Source: Phyllobates terribilis (Eukaryota). From it: a DNA stretch of 64,000 nt. Shown piece after piece: positions 4,160 to 49,870 of this stretch. The translations under genes were made by a program, and so were the position numbers. The stretch covers positions 596,812,001-596,876,000 of the forward strand of contig NW_027362764.1 of assembly GCF_046119375.1 (NCBI RefSeq), in the 5' to 3' direction. The notes below the pieces were generated by a model. It did not search any database and was not told the origin of the DNA. It was given only the letters and a program-made list of their open reading frames with translations. Numbering within the stretch: the stretch's first letter is position 1; each line of letters begins with the position of its first letter.

Positions 4160-7100
4160 ATGAGTGGAAAAAGGCCTGCTGCTGGTGGAAAGGGGAATAG
4201 GCGTGTTGTGAAGGGGAAAAAATGTTGTGTCCATGGGGTAGGTGCTAAAGCAACAGTAACATCTGCAGAAGATAGACCATCTTCCAGACAATCTAAAATG
4301 TCTACTTCTTTTAGCGGACAATGTGATAAGATCCCTTTCATAGAGCCATGCCAATCGCTACAAATTCCAGATGAGGCACAAAAACAGCAGGTGCTTCAAC
4401 GGATATCAAGTGCTCCTTTAAGTGGGCTCTCCTCCACCTCAACTTTAACATCACAAATACTCCAGTCCACAGAGGTGTCACCCCAATCGCACTTGCTTCC
4501 TCACAGCTCCCAAGTCTCCAGCTGCCTGTCTGACTATGGGGTAGAACTGATGGTTGAGTCTGCAGAGCTGTTTACTCATACTATAGCCTGGGAATCAGAG
4601 GTCGGCTCCAGAGCTTCTGTGAATCCAGATGAGGAAATGATCTGTACTGATGCCCAGAATCTTTATGAGTCGGATCCAGGACCAGACGCAGAAGGTTGTG
4701 ACCCTAATGTAGACCCTCATTCTCAAACTGTAACTCCTGTTGGTGGAGACAATGAGGAAGACGATGATGAGACTCAAATACCTGATTGGAGCGACAACTT
4801 TAGTTTTTTGTCAGGGCAGGAATAGGTTGGCTCTGAGGACGACAGGTGTGATGATGATGAGGTTGGAGATCCCACTTACTGTCAACCCACAGTCAGCCAA
4901 GAGATGAGGTCAGCAGAGGAGGTGGAGGAGGATGCTAGTGACGACGAGGTCAGGCTGCACCTTCCTGAACAGAGACAAGGTACTGGAAGCACGTCAACAA
5001 CTGCATCCTCAAACACAACTCTGCCTCTGACCACAAGTCGTAGTGGCTCTTCAGGTCGAATGGGTGCTAAGCCTTGCATAGCCTGGGCATTTTTTCAGAT
5101 CGATAAAGATGACCCAACTCGTGTTATCTGTAACATTTGTCAGCAAAAGCTAAGTAGAGGCCAAAAAATACATAGTTTGAGTACTTCATGCATGAACCGG
5201 CACATGGACATGAAGCATAAGTTGCAGTGGTAAGCTCACTGTGCTACAATGCGGCCTAGCTGGCAGGGCCAACCACCGTCTGCCACATCTTGTGCATCCG
5301 CGGCCTCTTCATCCTCTGTGACAGGTGGGACAGCAGTCACACCTGTTTTGGGACGCAGACCTGCCACCTCTTTACCCGCAACAGCCAGCGTGATTGGCAG
5401 GTCATCATTTTCTTTGGAGGTGGTAACATCAGCTGGTGTTCAGCGCAGTCCGACATCGATAGCACCACCTTTGGATCAAGGCAACCTAACATGTCCGCCT
5501 GTATCTTCCTCACAGACCTGCAGTTTGCCGGGGACACCCTTCTCAACCACGTCTAAGCACAACAGCCAGCCCTCGGTCCCTCAGATGTGGACAAGTAAAA
5601 GACCATTTCCTCCTAGCCATGAGAAATCTAAGAGGTTGAATCTCACCATCTGCAAGCTCTTGGCTACAGAAATGCTGCCTTTCCACCAGGTGGATACAGA
5701 GGATTTTCGAGACCTTATGTCCGTCGCAGTGCCCCAGTACCAGATGCCCAGTCGGCACTACTTCTCAAAGAAAGGTGTGCTTGCGCTCCACCAGCATGTC
5801 GCACACAACATGACCGCTTCTTTGAGTAACTCTGTGTTTGACAGGGTGCATTTCACCACAGACACTTGGACGAGTAGGCATGGACAGGGGCGTTACATGT
5901 CGCTTACTGGGCACTGGATAACTATGGTGACAGCAGGACAAGGGGCTGCTGTCCAAGTCTTGCCGTCCCCACGAGTTGTGCGTCAATCCTCTTTATCTCA
6001 AAGATCCTCCACTGCTTCTGCCTCCTCAACCTCCTCTCGGTCCTCCACCTGCACCCAAAGCCTGTCTGGTCATGACACAAGCTTTCTAACTGCGCAGAAG
6101 GGATCCTGCACACCTCCTTACTATGCTGGCAGCGGGGCTCAACGTCATCAGGCGGTTTTTATTTTGAAATGTCTGGGAAATGTGAGTCACACAGCTGAGG
6201 AGTTGTGGTCAGCTCTGGAGAACAAGTTTCATGAATGGTTGTCTCCACTGGACCTGAAACCAGGGAAGGCCGTGTGCGACAATGCTGCAAACCTGGGTGC
6301 GGCCCTTCGCCGGGGCAATGTCACACACGTGCCTTGTATGGCTCACGTGTTGAACCTGGTTGTCCAGCAATTTTTTTCCCACTATACCGGACTAGATGGC
6401 CTTCTGCAGAGGGCACGGTCGCTGTGTGCTCACTTCCGCCTTTCGCATCCCGCAGCTCAGTGACTTACATCTCTACAGATTTCGTTGGACCTGCCACTTC
6501 ACCGGCTAAAATGCAACGTGCCTACCCGGTGGAATTCAACTCTGCACATGTTGCAGCGACTGTGGCAGCACCGACAAGCCCTGGTGCAATACGTTCTGAC
6601 GTATAACCTGGGCCAACGAGATCCAGAGGTGGGGCAAATCACGCTGGAGGAGTGGTCTCAGATCAGGGACCTATGCACCCTTCTGCACAATTTTGAAATG
6701 GCAACGAAGATGTTTAGTGCTGACGATGCCATTATCAGCATGACTTTTCCGGTGATTTACATGCTGGAGCACATGTTAAACAAAATTCGGAGTCAAGTGG
6801 TGGCACAAGAGGAGGTGGAGGAAGTAGAGGAGGAGTTGTATGCGGAAGGGCTAACATCTGCAAGGTCCAGACGGTCGGCAGCACCAAGGCGGCAGGCTTG
6901 TGAGAGTGGGGGAGGTGGTTTTACCAGGGCGCATGGTAGCAGCCAAACTAGTGAGGAGGGTGCAGGAGCCCAGGAAGAAGTGGAGGACGAACTGATGGAA
7001 GACTCATCAGATGAGGGAGACCTTGATCACATTTCTGTTGTGCGAGGTTGGAGGGAGAGGACAGAGGAAGGAAGCATGATTGTTACCTCGCCACCAACAC

Positions 7101-35599: not shown

Positions 35600-36620
35600 A
35601 AAACCCCACTAAGAATTTAAAGACACATAGAGCAGGGCCACAGTAATGACAAATTCCCATTAGAAAGGAGAGAGTCTGCTATACAGTTATAGGGTATGCA
35701 GTGAGTCCAACGGCTGACCAATTTTAGGAAAAACCCCACTAAGAATTTAAAGACACATAGAGCAGGGCCACAGTAATGACAAATTCCCATTAGAAAGGAG
35801 AGAGTCTGCTATACAGTTATAGGGTATGCAGTGAGTCCAACGGCTGACCAATTTTAGGAAAAACCCCACTAAGAATTTTAAGACACATAGAGCAGGGCCA
35901 CAGTAACAAGAACGATGTGTTCCCATTAGAAAGGAGAGGGTCTGCTATACAGTTATAGAGTATGCAGTGAGTCCAACGGCTGACCAATTTTAGAAAAAAA
36001 AACACTAAGAATTTAAAGACACATAGAGCAGGGCCACAGTAACGACAAATTCCGATTAGAAAGGAGAGAGTCAGAATACAGTTATTGGGTATGCAGTGAG
36101 TCCAACGGCTGACCAATTTTAGGAAAAACCCCACTAAGAATTTAAAGACAAATAGAGCAGCGCCACTGTTTCGACAAATTCTCATTAGAAAGGAGAGAGT
36201 CTGCTATACAGTTATAGGGTATGCAGTGAGTCCAACGGCTGACCAATTTTAGGAAAAACCCCACTAAGAATTTAAAGACACATAGAGCAGGGCCACAGTA
36301 ATGACAAATTCACTTTAGAAAGGAGAGAGTCTGCTATACAGTTATAGGTTATGCAGTGAGTCCAACGGCTGACCAATTTTTTGGAAAACCCCACTAAGAA
36401 TTTAAAGACACATAGAGCAGGGCCACAGTAACAAGTATGACATGTTCCCATTAGAACGTAGAGGGTCTTCAGTACAGTTATAGGGTATGCAGTGAGTCCA
36501 ACGGCTGACCAATTTTAGGAAAAACCCCACTAAGAATTTAAAGACACATAGAGTAGGGCCACAGTAATGACAAATTCCCATTAGAAAGGAGAGAGTCTCC
36601 CATAGTGTTGGCCTATGCAG
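35600..36620. repeat. 130-bp tandem array (~8 copies, with 135-136-bp variants) in the 3' arm of hAT-C
   Basis: AAACCCCACTAAGAATTT at 35601, 35731, 35861, 36126, 36256, 36386, 36522. Confidence 0.95.
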
Positions 36621-37018
36621 TGAATGTAAGTGATGACAAAAATTTGGAGGCACTTCAATGCCCCTTGGAAGAGACGTGGAAGAGGGCCTCATAAAAAAAA
36701 TGTTCCCATTAGAAAGGAACGGGCCTCCTATACTTGTAATGCCCATGCACTAAGTGTATGGGCTGACAAACATTTACCCCTGGGGGGTATACATGGACAT
36801 ACTGTCTAAAAAATTTTTTTACGGGCATCATAAACAACCTTTAAAACAATGATGTGGGTGTTGCATCACGGACCATGGTCACCCTGGTGATATGGTGTAG
36901 GATGGGGAGATTGAGGAGGACAAGAGCAAATAGCCAAAATCAGGAAGCGTATACCCATGTCTGGGTGTGAAAAGGTGCATAGGAATACACCTCCCAAGAA
37001 AAGACACTGGATTTGAGT

Positions 37019-40342: not shown

Positions 40343-40399
40343 TTTAAATGGAGGACAGTATCTTCAACGCTCACTACAAATGACTGAGTTTGGAGCGAA

Positions 40400-40750
40400 C
40401 TTATATGTGATCCGTGTGACGGAGAAAATAGAGTTTTAAATAGCTGGCCTGTAGGTAAGTAGTTTGAACAGCAAACTGCTGTGATTTGCTTCACTGACAC
40501 ACTGAAAGAAATTTTTAATGGAGGCCAGAAATGGCAGTATTTTCTGACAACGTATATGTGATCCATGTGACGGAGAAAACAGAGTATTAAATACCAGGCC
40601 TATAGGTAAGTAGTTTTAACAGCAAACTGCTGTGAATTGCTTCACTGACACACTGAAAGAAATTTTTTATGTAGGCCAGAAATGGCAGTATTTTGTTACT
40701 AAGTATATGTGATCCGTGTGACGGAGAAAACAGAGTTTCAAATAGCTGGA
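40400..40750. repeat. 151-bp tandem repeat (~2.3 copies) just upstream of the hAT-C start codon
   Basis: ATATGTGATCC at ~40403, 40554, 40705. Confidence 0.9.
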
Positions 40751-41422
40751 TTTTTAGCGATGTAATATGGAAAGGACCTGGCTGTATTCTGCAGTGCCAA
40801 CAAGCAAATGGCGCAGAAAAACGGTGTTCTCTGGATTTCTTTTTAAGCAAGTAATGAGGATTAAGATCCAAAGAAAAGTATTCCTGGCCCCTGAGATCTA
40901 GGCCTTTGTATAGAAATATCTAACAGCAGCAGAAGGCAGAATTGGAATGGAGCCTTTTGTGCTATGTGCACTTCAGTCTGCTATATACCCTGCCTGCCTG
41001 ATATCTCTGCAGATGGATTAGTTAGTCCTCAAATGGACTGTTTGTTAAGATGGATATGTGTAATGTCCGTTTTTTTTTCCCCACATTAAGTAATACACAG
41101 GCAGATCTCTCATTGACGCAGCAGCACCTCTCACTACACTGTCCGGAGTGACTGTGACAAACATGGTGGCACCAGGTCTGATATAGACCCTATGACGCTG
41201 TGCGGCCAGCCAATCACTGTAATGCCACAACCAACATGGCTACGGCATTACAGTGAGTGGCAGGCAAACCCTGCATGTTGATTGACACTCTAAAGAGCAC
41301 CAAACATGCAGGGAGGGGACCAGACCTCCCGCCGAGCAACCCCGGAAATATTCGGCGAGCAGTGAGACGCTCGGGCGAGCACTGAGCAGTAGCGAGCATG
41401 CTCGTTCATCACTAATTAAAAG

Positions 41423-41732
41423 TAGTGATGAGCGAGTATGTTTTGTTAACCATTTTGCCTAGTATTCTCAGCCGAGCACCGAGTATTTATAGCGTGTTCG
41501 GTGATATGTTTGAATCATTCCCGTGTGCATGATTTGCGACTGTTTGACAGCTTTAATACATGTGAGGAATGTGTAAGAAGCAGACATTCCTCACATGTAT
41601 CAAAGCTGTCAAAAATCGCAAATCATGCACATGGGAGTGATTCAAACATATCACCGAGCACGCTATAAATACTCGGTGCTCGGCCGAGTATACTCGGCGA
41701 AAGGGTTAAGAAAACATACTTGCTCATCACTA
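41423..41732. mobile_element. 310-bp fold-back hAT MITE
   Basis: TAGTGATGAGC...GCTCATCACTA; ~150-bp nearly complementary arms with a ~10-nt loop; flanks ATTAAAAG/ATTAAGAG. Confidence 0.93.
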
Positions 41733-44031
41733 ATTAAGAGGTTACATTAGCGAGTCTGGTTTTTATACTAAAGATCCTGCGTGTTTTTATAGTTTTATAT
41801 GAGCACACAGAGACCATGGCTGCTGTAGCAGTGCATCCAGACCAGGATAGTGGTGGAGAAATTGCTCTACCATCAAATTGAAGATGCGAGCCATGCAAGG
41901 CACATGTATGAGGTTGCCCCAGCGTAGTGCTGCCTCCAGGTTTGCACCATTATCGCACACGGCCTTCCCTTGCTCCAGGTTCAGTGGTGACAGCCATTGC
42001 TCAATCTTGGCATGGATAGCTATCCACAACTCTTGATCAGTTTGACTGCGATATCCAAGGCATATTCATTGAAACACTGCCTGATTGCAGAGAGCCCTGG
42101 CAGCGCATTACGAATGTCGGAGGATTCTATCTGCACTGTTGTAACGTGTGTCTGTAACGGGGGGCAGGGTGGCAGTCGGTGGTGAGTGTCATGTCAGTTT
42201 CAGTGAGTAAATCCTCACCCTGGCCCACTACAGAAAAAGGGGACTCGGAGAATCCCTGGGTGTTTGTGTGTTGAGGTGTCTCTGTAGAGAATACCTCCAT
42301 ACTCACTTCTGTTTCGCCATCCTGGATGTTGAGTCTTTTAGCCTTCAGAAGGCGAAAACCAGACCAGCTTAAAAATGTAAAAACATCTTTACTTGCAGCC
42401 ACAGTCACATACAGGGAGTAGCAAGTGATACAGTCTCTTTGTGATCTCTTCACATACAGCGGCACTTTACCAGCGATGAAAGTCATGGACACCGATTTGG
42501 ATATGAAGATCAACGCCGAGCACGCCAGCTCTCTGGGTAACTCCATTCTCTGTCCCACTGCCTGACCTGCTTGGATCCACCTCCCTGATGAGGCTGTCCT
42601 GTCTTGGCACGTAAAGTGAAGTTCCCACATTGACCTCTCCATTTACATCTGTTCCTGTTGTCCCCGCTGTCTAGACTGTTCAGATTCACCTTCCAGATAA
42701 GGTTGTCCAAAAACTCCCAGACTGTGACACACACACACCCTTCTCCTGTACTTTCTCCTGTGTCCTCCTGACAGGTCCTCACTAGTCACTGTCCCTCACT
42801 CAACTCACTCTCCCTGCAATCAGGAAGTGATTCCTTTCTTCAGTAAATCTGCCACTCCCACACTGGAGCAGCTCCTAAACCCCTTAATTCTTTCCCAACC
42901 ATAACAGCATACTCTGTGTGCTATAGTGCCCACCTCTGCACTACTTCTTCTATCAATCTAATAGTTTACCCGCACCAACCTATATTGAACCTATAAGTAA
43001 CCCATCAGAGATTAGATCATATGAATGCTCATATATAAACATAGAACACAGAATTATGTGCATTAAGAGGGAAGAGGCGCATGACCGTCCTGGTCACCCT
43101 CTTACATACCTCCCTCCTAAAACATGGTTGTCCTGACCATGAAAATACCTGTAAAAAGAAACACTAATGCACATTTAAAACATTCAACAAATATGTTTAC
43201 TGTACATTAAAATGCACAATAGATCAATTCACTTTAATCACTTCTTCTTGCTAGTCAACCTTGACCTCGGTCCCACTCGGTTGGGACCTGGAACACAGAG
43301 TTCAAGTTCCTTTGAATATGGGTCCATCTGACCCCGGTCCCCTTGCTCCTGAGACCCACAAAAAAAATGTCCATCACATGCCCTCTGGCCAACAAATCCT
43401 GCTCTGACAGTCCTGGAGCAGTGACCCGGCACGATCCTCAGGTCGTCCTGACAGTTTCTCCCCCTCCCTCCTTTTTGCTGAGTATGGTCCCTTTAAGAAC
43501 CATGTACTGCTCAATAGCTCCTATACGAGAGCTCAGTCCATGGAGCAGTTGCACACAGTCCTTCAGTGTGGGATATTTAACCCTATTAGGATTCAGTCCC
43601 GTAATCCAGCAGGGGAATGCGCAAACGTGCGCAACAGAACTTGGAGAGGGGGAAACACACAAGCATATAGTCATCTTCTGGCCGTCCGGCCAGCACCATT
43701 GCTTCCTGGTGCTATCAGGGCTTCTTGCCCTTTAAGAGATGCAGAACAGTGTCTATTGGTGACCACATCCTTGGCCACCTCGGGTCGTCACCGGACTGAA
43801 CAGGGGCTCCTGCCCATAGGAACACAGTACAGTTCCTTTTGCTTGTTTCACAGTGCAACTAGCACAACTTGGGTGGCGGTTCACACACCGCCCGTTTAGT
43901 CAGCGGCTTCCGCATAGTGGCTGTAGTTTACCACCCCATTGTCCTTGAAGATCAGGACTGTCTGTCCCTACGATCCTGTAGAAGACGAGGAGCCCCCACG
44001 CTCACTCCTGGTCCTCTCGCGTACAGCTGGG

Positions 44032-45267
44032 CTAGGTGCCAGCCTCCTCTGTAGGGGTACTTGTTGCGGGGGCAGCTAGTTCATGCAGCGCCTGGGCCGT
44101 AGACAGGGTCTGCAGCAGAGTAACAGACTCGGATATTTGTGAGGTCATCTCACTGGGGTCTGGTTCCTGATCTGCAGGCACCACAATCAACTGCTGCCCA
44201 ACGGCCGCGGTTTCCGGCCACACAGGATGGTTTGCGGCCTGCTGCTGCTCTGCCTCAGGCAATATAGCGACAGCCACTGCATACGGGCCTCGGGGCCCAT
44301 ACTCCTTAACGAATGACACTCGACGACTGCCCCATAGCAAGGGGCCGCAGCCGCGAACAGATCCGGCATTCACTTATACTTTTTCGCTGGTATCAGTCTC
44401 CTGAATGAACCCATAGCCGCGGGAAAGCTCATAGTACCTCACTAGGCCGTATGTAATGCGGGCTCTGCATCTCTTAATGAATGCGGCACTCCCGCCTCTT
44501 CTTCTCGGCGATTACCCCTCGATCCACCATTCCTCCTCCTCTCTGGGGGTTCTCACAGCTTCTTGGTAAGTTGGGGGTGATGGGCTAGACGCAGGAGTGA
44601 GTGGGTCAGGGGGTGAGTCTGGATCAAGACTCATCGCCGCCATGGTCACCAGAGCTGGCTCTCCATCATCCGCAGGCACCACTGCTGCCGTTGGTCCTCC
44701 CGCCGCCCAGATTGGTTCAAGCACTTCCTCCTTGTGTAGCCTGCGCCGCTCCCAGTCCATGTGTCCAAGGCCACCGCGATGTAGCATTGTCTCAGGCTGT
44801 TGCTGCTTCACCGTCTCCTTCAGCAATGGCGCCGCACTGCTTGACACGAGGGATCCTCCTTCCAGGCTCCACCTGTCCGTAGGTGGATCCGCCTCCACCA
44901 ATTCCTCCCACTCTGACTCTGGTTCTGGGATCTTCAATGGTGAGCAGGGTTTCTTCTTTCTTTGCCGCACACACCGCAGGCGGGCACTGCTCACAGGGGG
45001 CCACAGTTTCAGCCCGGCCCGGCTTCCATGCCATACAGTTTTTTGTGCTGTTTTGCGCTCAGGATGCCCACGATGGGCGGAGCTATCGGCAGCCTCCACG
45101 CCATTATCCGCCATCTTGGAACTCACTTTGCTGGCCACCATCTTGAGATCGCCATTTTCGTCCACCTTCTTGGTTTGTACGCTTTTCAATTCTTTCCGTT
45201 TCATCTGTTTATCTTCAGGCGCCTCATCTGCGCCAGGGGCATTTTTCTTGCGGTCCTTATCCAGCAT
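44032..45267 (-). pseudogene. ~411-codon ORF with a cold-shock domain (44260-44455), two premature TAA stops
   Basis: ORFs 44512-45393 and 44032-44373 are in the same frame. The read-through contains YGLVRYYELSRGYGFIQETDTSEKV*VNAGSVRGCGPLLWGSRRVSFVKEYGPRGPYAVAVAIL. Confidence 0.75.
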
Positions 45268-45319: not shown

Positions 45320-45342
45320 TTCGCATCCTGCCGACTACGCCA
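45320..45342 (-). promoter_or_regulatory. Primer-binding site complementary to the tRNA-Ser 3' end
   Basis: Plus strand TTCGCATCCTGCCGACTACGCCA versus vertebrate tRNA-Ser(AGA/TGA) 3' end TTCGAATCCTGCCGACTACG-CCA (1 mismatch, recalled); lies 2 nt from the LTR boundary at 45345. Confidence 0.88.
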
Positions 45343-48126
45343 AATGTAGCGAGGTGGCACGGGGTGGTAGTTATGGGCGAGTCTACTGAGCAACCTTCAG
45401 CGAGCACCCCGGCACCTCGCACATGAATAAACGGATAGAGTCAGTGCTTTTAAATACAACCAACATTACTGACAGATTGCAGTGTTTAGGCAGGTGCAGC
45501 AGATATTCTCAGGCCCAGGTCTTATGCAGGGACAATAAGCCATTTCTCTACCTTCCGACTCAGTTTATTACAGCAGGCAGACTTTCACCTTCAGCACACC
45601 CTCTGTCCTCGTTGCCGCTTGTCCTAGGGAAGCTGTGGTACTCGGATAAGGCTCCTATACGTTTTCCACAGTCCCTGTTCTCTCTCGCTGTGCTACTCGG
45701 ATATAGATATATATATATATATGTACATCCCTTCTCCTCAGCCTCTGTTCGGTCCTCAGCACCTGCTGAGGGCTGTCGGCACTCTCTCTCTCTCCCGCGC
45801 ACCTTCTAACCCTGGCCTGGGTCTATGGCTGCCGGACTCTGCTTAGTGCCTAGTCTCTGTCCTCGGATCCGCGCACCTCCTAACCCTTGCTCAGGTCTCT
45901 GGCTGTCGGACTCTCTGGTACTCACATGGACCCTTGATGTCTCGTGTACTGGCCTCTTCTCTGAGTGCATTTACACCATCACTGGTCCTTACTCATGGGC
46001 TTATGGCCCCACTGCCTCGACTCCTTCTTTGCGGGGACACCCCCTTCTTCACACAAGCTCCTTTTCTCTGGAGCTCTTCTCTGACACCTTGTCCTGGGCA
46101 TGGCCGCCCGGACACTGCTACTTGACTTCCTTTCTCCTGTCTCTAAGCTCACTGCCTCTGCTCCTCCCTGCTATGTTCCTCCCCCTGGCCAGCTCTGCTA
46201 TGCTGCTGTAACTAGGCAACTACTGCACTGTACATTATAGGGAGAACACATAAAAGCATCAACATTACATTAGACATTACATTCACACGGGTACAACTAC
46301 TGCCGCACGTGGGAATAATAACAGTGAAAAGTCCTTCTTAAAGGGGTGGTGGCGTCCTTCCCCCTTACATGTCTCATTAAGGCAGAGGTTGAGGTCACAG
46401 GTGGAGGCCCTAGAGGAGGTAGAGGAGGCAGAAGCACTGGAGGAAGTGTTATATACAAAGGTTTGTCCCGCAAATCTTGGGGATTCTAAGACTTGCTGTC
46501 TAGTGACACCTTGGTGTCAAGTGGTTTAGTTCTCCATCCCCTGGTGTGTAGAAGTTTAGTTCTCCAACCCTAGCTGTTCATTAGTTTATTTTTCCAACAT
46601 CTGTTGTCTGTTAGTTTAGTTCTCCATGTTCTGGCCCAGTGCCCAGTCAGTGAGATATAAAGCCTCTGGCCATGCTTGCTTGTCCTGGTGTCAGTGGTGA
46701 AATGCACCCTGTCAGACCTAGATTTTTTCAAGGAATAGGTGATGTTGTCTGCAACATGCTGGTGTAGCCCAGGCACAGCTTTCTTAGAGAAGTAATGGCG
46801 ACTGAGAAACTGGTACTGGGGACTGCGATAGCCATCAGCTTTCGGAAACTGTCTGTATCCACCAGGCGGAAAGGCAGCATTTCTGTGCCCAACAGATTGG
46901 AGATGGTGAAGTTCAAGCTCTTTGCTTTGGCATGTGTAGGAGGAAACAATCTTTTATGTGACCACAACTGTGAGATTAAGGGCTGGATGCTGTGCTGAGA
47001 GAGGGTGGAGTAAGGTGAATACGACAAGCTTCTGGACTGTGATAGAGGTGCAGATGGAGATGTTACAATGGATTTAGAAAGATGGAGTGCGTTTGGTGTC
47101 TGACATCAGTCAAAAACAGCAGGCATGTCCACTTCCGTAACAGCTGACGGGCTCTCACTCCCTCCGACTTTAGCGGGTAAACAAGTGGAGGCTCTTCTAC
47201 CAGAGACCTGTGCGAGAACACTTGCCATGGTGCCGGAGGAGGCAGAAGCAGAAGATGCAGTTGATGGGGTGGCCAGTGGTTGGCAAGGCCTGCTAGTCTG
47301 CATTTTAGCACAGTGAAATTCCCAGATTGACCCATGTTGATCGCACATGTGCCAGTTCATGCATGTAGTAGTCAAATTATTGCATTTTTTTTACTTTACT
47401 CTGTAATTTTTAACAAAGTTGGCAGATAACATGAGTTGTCATTTTTTGAGGTCTCAAAAAGGACCCAGGCTAGGCAACTAAAGACCCTTGAACGCTACTG
47501 GCCACTGCCAGAGTTGAGGCTGAGGATACAGTGCTTGTTATAGTTGCTTAACTCTGTGTCTGTGCGGGAAGCCGCAACGTAACCTCCTCGTCTTCCTCCT
47601 CCTCAACCTCCTCAGCTGAGCTACTCAGCTGCATGCCTGTGGGTTCACACCAAGTGGGATCTACAACCTCATCATCATCCTCTCTGTTCTCCCACTCCTT
47701 GCCCTGATAGTCACACTCTTCCTCTTCCTGCCCTGACAGCACAGTACTGTATAGGTGTGTCTCAAGTATCTGAGTCTCATCAGGATCAACTCCATCTCCA
47801 GGGGTTAATATCTGGTGACGAGGGGTGGATTCTGCTGGGACCCTACTGAAAAAAATTTGGGGCATTGCTGTACATGCTTTCCCCCTCTTGAGTCTGTGAA
47901 GCTTTGGATCAGACCTCTGATGCCCCGGAATAGAATGTGTGAACAGCTCTGCAGACTCACCCATCTGTGGTTCCCAACAGTCAGTTGGGCAGTTGGAGAG
48001 TTATGACACGGGTGAAAACAAGGGTAATTGGAATGCCACCTCTGAAGACTGTACTGTGTGTGATGTTAAGGTGGAGGAAGAGGAGTAGAGGCCACTTGAT
48101 GAAGCGCTTATCATCTACTGCAGCAC

Positions 48127-49381
48127 ATGTTCTTTCTGGCCCGCATCTACAAAGTGTACCGCTGTCTCGGCACCACAGACTTGTCCCTATCTTGGATCAC
48201 TTCATACCTAACTGACTGGACATTCATTGTCTCCCACTCACACACCACCTCCTCATCTCGTCTCCTATGTGTCGGAGTCCCCCAAGGTTCAGTTCTAGGA
48301 GCCCTGCTCTTCTTCATCTACACCTTCGGCCTGGGACAGCTCATAGTCTCACGGCTTTCAGTATCACCTGTATGCTGATGACACACAGATCTACCTCTCT
48401 GGACCTGATATCACCTCCTTACTAACCAGAATATTACAATGTGTGTCTGCTATTTCATCTTACTTCTCTGCTAGATTTGTAAAACTTAACATGGATAAAA
48501 CTGAATTCATTATCTTTCCACCATCTCATTCACCCCCCCAACTGACCTATCCATCTAAGTCAATGGCTTCACACACTCCCGAGTCCCTCAATCTTGACTT
48601 TGATCTGTCCTTCAAATGTCAGATCCAAGCCCTTTCCACTTGCTGCCGACTCCAATTCTAAAATATATCTCCGGGATCCCCACATTCCTCAACCATGAAT
48701 CTACAAAAACACCAGTGGACACCCTCATCATTTCCCGCCTCAACTACTGCAAGCTCCTGCTCTGTGGCCCCCCTTCTACCACTCTCGCACCCCTCCAATC
48801 TATCCTAAACTGTGCTGGCCAACTAATCCACCTATCACCCCACTATTTCCTGGCTTCTCCCCTCTGTCAATTCCTGTGCTGGCTCCCCGTTGCCCAGAGA
48901 CTCCAGTTGAGAAACCTAACTTTTGCATACCAAGCCATTCAAAACCTTTCTCCTCCATACATCTGTGACCTTGTCAATCTGTACTTACCTGTGCGCAACC
49001 TCCCATCCTTACAAGATCTCATTCTCTACTTCCCTCTTATCTCTTCGTGCCACAATTGCATACAAGATTTGTCCCGTGCATCTCCCCTATTGTGGAACTC
49101 TCTACCACAACACATCAGACTCTTGCCTACCGTGGAAACCTTCAAAATGAAGCTGAAGACACACTTCTTCTGACAAGCATACAATTTGCAGTAATCCTTA
49201 CTTCACCATACCGCTGCATGACCAGCTGTACCCTCACCTACTGTATCCTCACCCATTCCTTGTAGATTCTTTGCGCGCCCACGCGGGCATGGTCCTCTCT
49301 CCTCTTGTATGATTCGGTGACTCCTTTTCAGATGTAAAGTGGCATGGAATAAATGGCGCTATGATAATAAATAATAATAAT
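48127..49381 (+). mobile_element. L2 LINE 3' portion (RT and tail), 5'-truncated
   Basis: SWITSYLTD..GVPQGSVLG.LLFFIYT..YADDTQIY..LNMDKTE..SRLNYC..LQSILN..FKMKLKTHF; tail GGAATAAATGGCGCTATGATAATAAATAATAATAAT. Confidence 0.92.
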
Positions 49382-49394
49382 TATACTATTTGTA

Positions 49395-49870
49395 CCCTGG
49401 GTCAATTGATGCCACTTTTCTAGTGTCAGCCCTTAATTAGGAAAATGTGGAGACTCCTGGTTGAGTCTCCATCTGCTGGGTATGCTGTAGTGGAAGAGGT
49501 GTCGGTACACATTATACTAGTTCTACTCTACAGAAATTGATGCCACTTCAGTGGTGTCAGCCCCTAATTTAGGGAAATGTGAACACTCCTGATTGGGTCT
49601 CCATCTGCTGGGTATGCTATAGTGGAAGAGGTGTCGATCCCCATTATACTATTTCTACTCTTTTGAAATTGATGCCACTTTGGTGGTGTCTGTACCTATT
49701 TTTTTATATTTGAAGACTCCTGATTGGGTCTCCATCTGCTGGGTTGGTTGTAGTGGAAGAGGTGTCGGTCCTAATTCTAACATTTCTACTCTGGTGAAAT
49801 TGGTGGTGTCAGCCTTTAATTTTTGGAAATGGGGAGACTCCTGGTTGGGTCTCCTTCATATGTATTGCCT
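49395..49870. repeat. ~131-bp tandem repeat (~3.7 copies) in the 5' arm of hAT-D
   Basis: AATTGATGCCACTT at 49404, 49535, 49667. Confidence 0.88.

Follow-up and report, generated by a model that had tools for sequence, protein, structure and literature searches.

Cold-shock-domain genes under purifying selection in non-autonomous LTR retroelements of a poison frog

The non-autonomous LTR elements include the TRIM, LARD, TR-GAG and MaLR types, and to our knowledge none of these carries a host-type RNA-binding domain under selection. Such elements are usually seen as passive, having only cis signals or a leftover gag. Cassandra, Helenus and Ajax are further non-autonomous LTR retrotransposons, according to the accessible text of PMC10886601. 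Cold-shock domains (CSDs, pfam00313) were found in 46 RT-defined endogenous retroviruses (ERVs) of birds, at varied positions and through several captures, and the authors considered repeated capture possibly adaptive (PMC12287698, accessible sections). In the accessible part of one poison-frog study, 62.6% of the reads were unclassified (PMC12208295). The words "cold shock" were absent from the main text of that study and from the main text of an anuran transposable-element survey (PMC12822217), and their sole mention in the accessible text of a carp paper concerned a host gene (PMC13583293). The full-text literature searched, outside which lie subscription journals, Repbase and Dfam, described no non-autonomous frog elements with a CSD as sole gene, and a library entry may exist. 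The original remark that no formal description was known thus agrees with this search for the frog group, but CSD capture by LTR elements had already been published for bird ERVs.

The window analyzed here was the whole stretch of 64,000 nucleotides from Phyllobates terribilis (NW_027362764.1, positions 596,812,001 to 596,876,000), taken from an assembly of 10.6 Gb. The element lies on its minus strand. The 5' LTR (type A, 1025 bp, TGTAA...TACA, 45345-46369) was 92-95% identical to the LTRs of family A, a separate family without a CSD, and the 3' LTR (type B, 954 bp, 42153-43106) matched those of the nearest copies in the family at 89-95% and is the normal LTR of family B, the window's own family. 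The primer-binding site (PBS, 45325-45342) was complementary to the 3' end of tRNA-Ser(AGA) and also occurred in autonomous Gypsy elements. It was followed by a single long, decayed frame (44032-45267), a 3' untranslated part without any gag/pol relic or Rfam match (43119-44031), and a polypurine tract (PPT, 43107-43118) closely resembling the tract of autonomous Gypsy elements. A 4-bp target-site duplication enclosed the unit (46370-46373 on the 5' side, 42149-42152 on the 3' side). With TG...CA ends, PBS, PPT and target duplication present and pol absent, the locus proved to be the non-autonomous LTR element that had been proposed. The tRNA-end pattern had 37 exact genomic matches; in the eight loci scanned by ARAGORN, one tRNA-Ser(aga) (L212) and one tRNA-Ala(agc) were called, and six gave no call. 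Rfam gave no match in the window element and two chance-level matches in seven loci, and thus no ribozyme or small-RNA gene.

The same repetitive host sequence flanked the element upstream (46370-47500) and downstream (41780-42152), and all 14 other copies of this repeat were continuous through the insertion point. The repeat is presumably hAT-transposase-like, and a second hAT-like copy was seen in the window at 5074-6432. Also observed in the window were a long, MITE-like inverted repeat and two sizes of tandem array, about 130 and 151 bp (41420-41735; 36003-36725; 40378-40749; 49379-49857).

Translation of 45267-44032 on the minus strand, with X for TAA, gave 411 residues with X at codons 252 (44514-12) and 298 (44376-74), which reproduced the two TAA breaks and the peptide originally quoted. 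The order of the protein was a basic stretch, a Pro/Ala-rich linker, a charged helix, the CSD and a tail. The CSD (PF00313, 44266-44451, minus strand), assigned by Pfam, fold and selection, was matched at residues 273-334 (about 44451-44266), with an E-value of 1.6e-4 for the entire frame and 1.3e-5 for the excised stretch; it was the sole meaningful Pfam match in the frame. The 25.4 bits obtained fell below the curated cut-off of 27, in a copy that is broken. Pfam and profile scans of the window element found no gag, protease, RT, integrase or CCHC knuckle, in agreement with the absences first reported, and none of nine elements scanned held gag/pol relics.

The lesions were only in part those described at first. 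Relative to the unbroken 461-residue frame of another family-B copy (P0001), the window frame had lost 1 nt near 44519 and 23 nt near 44461, with roughly 20 codons out of frame between the two sites, and it carried a further deletion near 44039. Because the first TAA (44514-12) falls in the patch between these two compensating deletions, it is a product of that patch and not a nonsense mutation, and the frame was regained by chance. The second TAA (44376-74) was a true in-frame stop within the CSD. Similarly, the ATG at 45267, from which the long frame was read, had been described as the first after the PBS, but an earlier ATG at 45326 overlaps the PBS end and opens 10 codons (45326-45294).

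A DNA search of the genome yielded 137 candidates, 40 of which were scored, the window included, and 9.5 kb was fetched around each of the other 39. LTR B stood at both ends in 12 of the 39 stretches, with pairs 86-96% alike, which is the norm of the family; eight further stretches had more distant LTR pairs of their own, and LTR A flanked both sides in none. The target duplication in the 12 B-group copies was an exact 4 bp in six and had one mismatch in four, with unresolved ends in two. One 26-mer, with up to two mismatches, occurred in at least 32 places for family B. The predicted full CSD was borne out at family level, as 11 of 12 other, stop-free family-B stretches matched the domain, five of them above the Pfam cut-off. 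Family A had LTRs of about 1.1 kb, a 1.1-kb interior and the same tRNA-Ser PBS (L071-L089, L201, L202). The PBS followed the LTR in 4 of its 19 loci, most others being solo or 3' LTRs, and no CSD match was found in the two loci scanned. The CSD is not needed for movement, since family A spread on the same PBS without it.

The wider group was large. A genome profile search with PF00313 returned 33,380 first-look candidates, a figure that is not a copy number, and all of the 150 scored exceeded the cut-off. Open frames of at least 670 residues held 81 of these 150 matches (counted by hand). The best six, judging by their motifs, are presumably CSDE1-like copies, and most others belonged to family C. 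Family C measured 4.95 kb, with 1.2-kb LTRs and the same tRNA-Ser PBS, and one 26-mer (up to two mismatches) matched at least 873 places. Its LTR pairs were 99.7-100% identical in 11 of 12 young copies fetched and 79-97% in five of six older copies. Family C is young and recently mobile. Tandem LTR-interior-LTR-interior arrays of this family, about 3.7 kb apart, were noticed at L200 and other places. Family D had a CSD, the same tRNA-Ser PBS and LTR pairs 98% alike, so that the PBS occurred in four families (A-D). Family F had a CSD and a PBS unlike that of A-D, yet it had LTR sequence in common with family C (L198, L199). For type E, also with a CSD, the element ends were not found. Thus stop-free copies flanked by LTRs, which had been sought, do exist. 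The CSDs of the several families were 30-40% identical, with 28-39% identity to family C outside the C/F group, and B and C could be aligned over the helix and CSD only.

Other frogs were also represented. An NCBI protein of Phyllobates terribilis was 97% identical to the family-C CSD, and related proteins were recorded in Dendrobates tinctorius and Anomaloglossus baeobatrachus, which makes three dendrobatid frogs; the Anomaloglossus protein starts with a translated LTR end and PBS. It had been predicted that annotation would miss the frame, which holds for the broken window copy, but the NCBI models from three frogs already hold the protein as "uncharacterized". Contigs of four runs, whose kind is unsure, covered a young element, indicating presence only and not expression. 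A word-seeded protein search with the family-B region gave nothing among 377 candidates. When 1.84 billion representatives were searched with a profile, most matches were generic CSD proteins, with two named frog proteins among the 17 looked up, and Atlas searches gave only leads below 0.9. In one Anomaloglossus model (P0161), a stretch like a coiled coil and a hydrophobic run at the C-terminus lay past the CSD and appeared envelope-like by eye; Pfam gave no match there, and the model may be a fused gene.

The two LTRs of the window copy had no significant match to each other, and the whole unit lay within one 4-bp duplication. The window copy is therefore a one-off chimera of two unrelated LTRs; matching LTRs characterize family B but not this copy. 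The switch from A to B mapped to the LTR end/PBS, and the exact chimera junction pattern occurred once in the genome, compared with three occurrences of the normal A junction (one mis-set row was left out of the junction comparison). A second-strand transfer between A-family and B-family cDNA at the shared PBS is the simplest explanation, and a moderately probable one, because plus-strand transfer between two co-packaged templates requires just that one junction. The single spacer base at the junction, which is of the B type and not the A type, counts against it. Gene conversion with two microhomology ends is a possible source of the unlike LTRs. Nested insertion, or plain recombination of two distant elements, was rejected in view of the single target duplication. 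If strand transfer is the true source, different satellites would occupy one particle. Intermolecular second-strand transfer has been proposed for HIV-1 recombinants, where, as in the frog copy, the provirus ends come from different RNAs; the window LTRs differ in belonging to unrelated families (PMC5651808, accessible text).

Selection among the copies was clear. In family B (38 rows, without L068 and L069, which lie in tandem with L044 and are nearly identical to it), the CSD variants found in at least four copies numbered 17 N/43 S (w 0.13), whereas singletons, which behaved as neutral, numbered 73 N/18 S (w 1.37; Fisher p 3e-10, a guide only, as shared variants are not independent events). 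The value for shared variants was 0.10 when CpG changes were excluded. The other two frames of the CSD showed no such drop (w 0.99 and 3.09). For shared variants elsewhere in the frame, w was 0.18 in the helix, 0.34 in the linker and 0.36 in the tail. The first 104 codons showed no selection (w 0.8-1.2, with 1.17 for shared variants), so the true start of the family-B protein is unsure. In family C, 11 unbroken frames gave a pooled w of 0.19 for both the CSD and the helix block; two middle blocks gave 0.37-0.38, and the N-terminus and the linker/rest about 0.6, with silent sites near saturation for distant pairs. Hence, during the mobile period of the family, purifying selection acted strongly on the CSD, and the selection anticipated among copies was found in both families. 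Such selection indicates usefulness and not cis action; a few trans-acting master copies would leave the same signal.

The predicted fold of the CSD was a five-stranded OB barrel with pLDDT 90.8, from an alignment that included seven outside CSD proteins and so leaned toward the fold; the element-only alignment (12 rows) gave no fold (pLDDT 39.5). Foldseek matched the model to Csp, YBX, LIN28 and Unr with TM 0.73-0.87, in accordance with the OB-fold that had been expected. In 20 aligned CSDs, the aromatic binding positions were kept as W/Y in 19, F in 18 and F/Y in 19, and the basic K/R in 19. At the presumed positions of the classical binding-face residues, Trp was present in none of these and His in one. 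With both of these residues lost, the affinity or specificity of the predicted CSD may differ from that of known CSDs.

The origin of the domain was less clear. It had been called Y-box-like, and YBX1 did head the all-family profile (54.1 bits), but E. coli CspA stood level with it (52.1), and family B alone was nearer to Csp (31.5 bits) than to Y-box (20.8). LIN28 (23.6), CSDE1 (18) and CARHSP1 were far below in the all-family profile. Identity to the YBX1/YBX2 structures was 29-32%, and the near-invariance of vertebrate YBX CSDs was thus not seen. The Y-box-length loop was retained in families C, D and E and shortened in family B. The tree suggested at the outset (68 columns, outside rows chosen with the element profile) grouped 23 element rows on the same side of a branch with support of 82/88, not starred, which is not proof of one origin, and the donor was not named by it. 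It contained no intact vertebrate YBX, because a search with a decayed Y-box-like copy returned only itself. Among frog host proteins, the most probable donor is YBX, with which the longer loop agrees; a bacterial or older non-vertebrate CSD is a possible source. A decayed, intron-less Y-box-like CSD without LTRs (L125/L204), probably a processed pseudogene, was also encountered. So was an intron-less, partly duplicated cluster (L105-L110, L153-L154; G000:C1:734.43-734.45 Mb), which we take from its motifs to be CSDE1-like, with one member fused to apparently LINE-like sequence.

A likely helper was found in autonomous Gypsy elements. Matches to the LTR end plus PBS numbered 2,017, and the first 30 loci taken comprised 20 gag-pol Gypsy elements, five of family D and five standing alone. 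The full autonomous Gypsy encoded a PNMA-like Gag with a CCHC knuckle, then protease-RT-RNaseH-integrase, between LTRs 99% alike (one row was left out of the helper domain scan). Its PPT was close to that of family B. The satellites were tied to the helper by PBS, PPT and short motifs, the LTRs being otherwise unrelated. No CSD was found on the sense strand of eight autonomous stretches. Furthermore, a 50-nt hairpin in all three family-D 3' untranslated regions (L193-L195; L194:3915-3974) was 92-94% identical to part of the helper LTR (L188:8666-8725), and was not found in the window element. It is a candidate packaging or dimer signal; a ribozyme was rejected, with no Rfam match and folding z-scores of -0.6 to -3.3. 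A variant of the hairpin was seen upstream of a type-E CSD frame (L196). In the helper, the ATG overlapping the PBS end opens the gag frame (L188, L159), and in B, C, D and P0099 the long frame stays open across the PBS, in another reading frame.

From these sequence comparisons, we consider it about an even chance that the pol-less satellites borrow the Gypsy helper machinery and that the CSD protein acts as a cis RNA chaperone on its own transcript. The helper would supply reverse transcription, integration and particles. The CSD protein would bind the RNA that encoded it, keep that RNA stable and unfolded, and aid its entry to the helper particle or onto the primer, and coding copies would thereby out-replicate broken ones. 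The cis benefit is suggested because selection can most readily maintain a gene of a non-autonomous element when the product favours the RNA it came from. The fuller reading, held with slightly less than even confidence, is of an old, diversified and still active frog satellite lineage, which carries a single gene, for a captured Y-box-type RNA-binding protein that works in cis for a place in, or a better outcome from, Gypsy particles, with possibly thousands of copies that contribute to the giant genomes of poison frogs.

Y-box proteins mask oocyte mRNA, and the CSD protein might instead act outside particles against silencing or for expression, by masking its RNA from small-RNA or decay pathways, by mimicking or displacing host Y-box proteins in germ cells, or by aiding export or LTR transcription. 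We regard this as rather unlikely. The same selection data on B and C would fit it, as would the Y-box-length loop in C, D and E and the basic stretches at the N-terminus of B, C, D and P0099, but the basic region of family B was without selection, and non-coding copies, those of family A among them, would presumably profit from a purely trans-acting shield. The common PBS and PPT, together with the hairpin in the three family-D copies, could also mean that the gene serves the helper, as an accessory factor of a two-part system once carried by, or now supplied to, the Gypsy element. This appears improbable, as the eight autonomous stretches, drawn from two helper families, had no CSD, the nine elements had no gag/pol relic, and the frame had no profile match to Gag. 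The nucleocapsid role "instead of gag-pol" in the original prediction, with the CSD protein as a structural Gag substitute, is very doubtful. CSDs are single-strand chaperones, and in B, C and D the domain has a helix in front of it, but there was no capsid homology (hhalign probability to Gag of 0.2-0.3%, from shallow profiles), the remainder was low-complexity and poorly predicted (pTM 0.26), and the likely helper carries its own CCHC knuckle. A passenger CSD (processed pseudogene or chance frame), as the broken window copy below the Pfam cut-off might suggest, is scarcely credible, being contradicted by the frame-specific purifying selection in B and C and by retention of the CSD in three named frog species and between families whose identity is 30-40%.

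On the reading of cis-acting satellites, the selected non-gag RNA-binding gene across deeply split families would mean active competition by the satellites, either for helper machinery or against host silencing, that could be tested via one small domain. The CSD families name part of the unclassified repeat mass of poison frogs, and, among the CSD gene models that frog annotations call "uncharacterized", many are transposons. Moreover, they provide a case, with selection shown, for repeated CSD capture by LTR elements.

Compared with Y-box proteins (YBX1/YBX2, FRGY2) and CspA, the element CSD has the same five-stranded OB barrel and RNP1 and RNP2 aromatics, but it is about 30% identical, has Trp/His replaced, and lies near the C-terminus after a charged helix. 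The TRIM, LARD, TR-GAG and MaLR types are like the frog elements in their LTRs, PBS, PPT, target duplication, lack of pol and probable dependence on a helper, as are Cassandra, Helenus and Ajax; all of these, as far as the accessible sources describe them, have no gene, a gag-derived gene or small-RNA-derived sequence. The frog frame differs from the TR-GAG/MaLR type in not being Gag-homologous (hhalign 0.2-0.3% with shallow profiles; Pfam CSD only). The Ty3/Gypsy elements with PNMA-like Gag (L188 type) have the tRNA-Ser PBS, a similar PPT, TG...CA ends and 4-bp duplications in common with the satellites, whereas they possess gag-pol, lack a CSD and have LTRs unrelated save for short motifs. 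The bird ERVs are alike in carrying a CSD within an LTR retroelement, but they are RT-defined, with E-values of 1e-24 to 1e-26 in two rows of Supplementary Table 6 (PMC12287698, accessible sections). In contrast, the frog elements are Gypsy-associated and lack pol; their one gene is the CSD frame, which has diverged strongly and bears the mark of selection, and young copies number in the hundreds.
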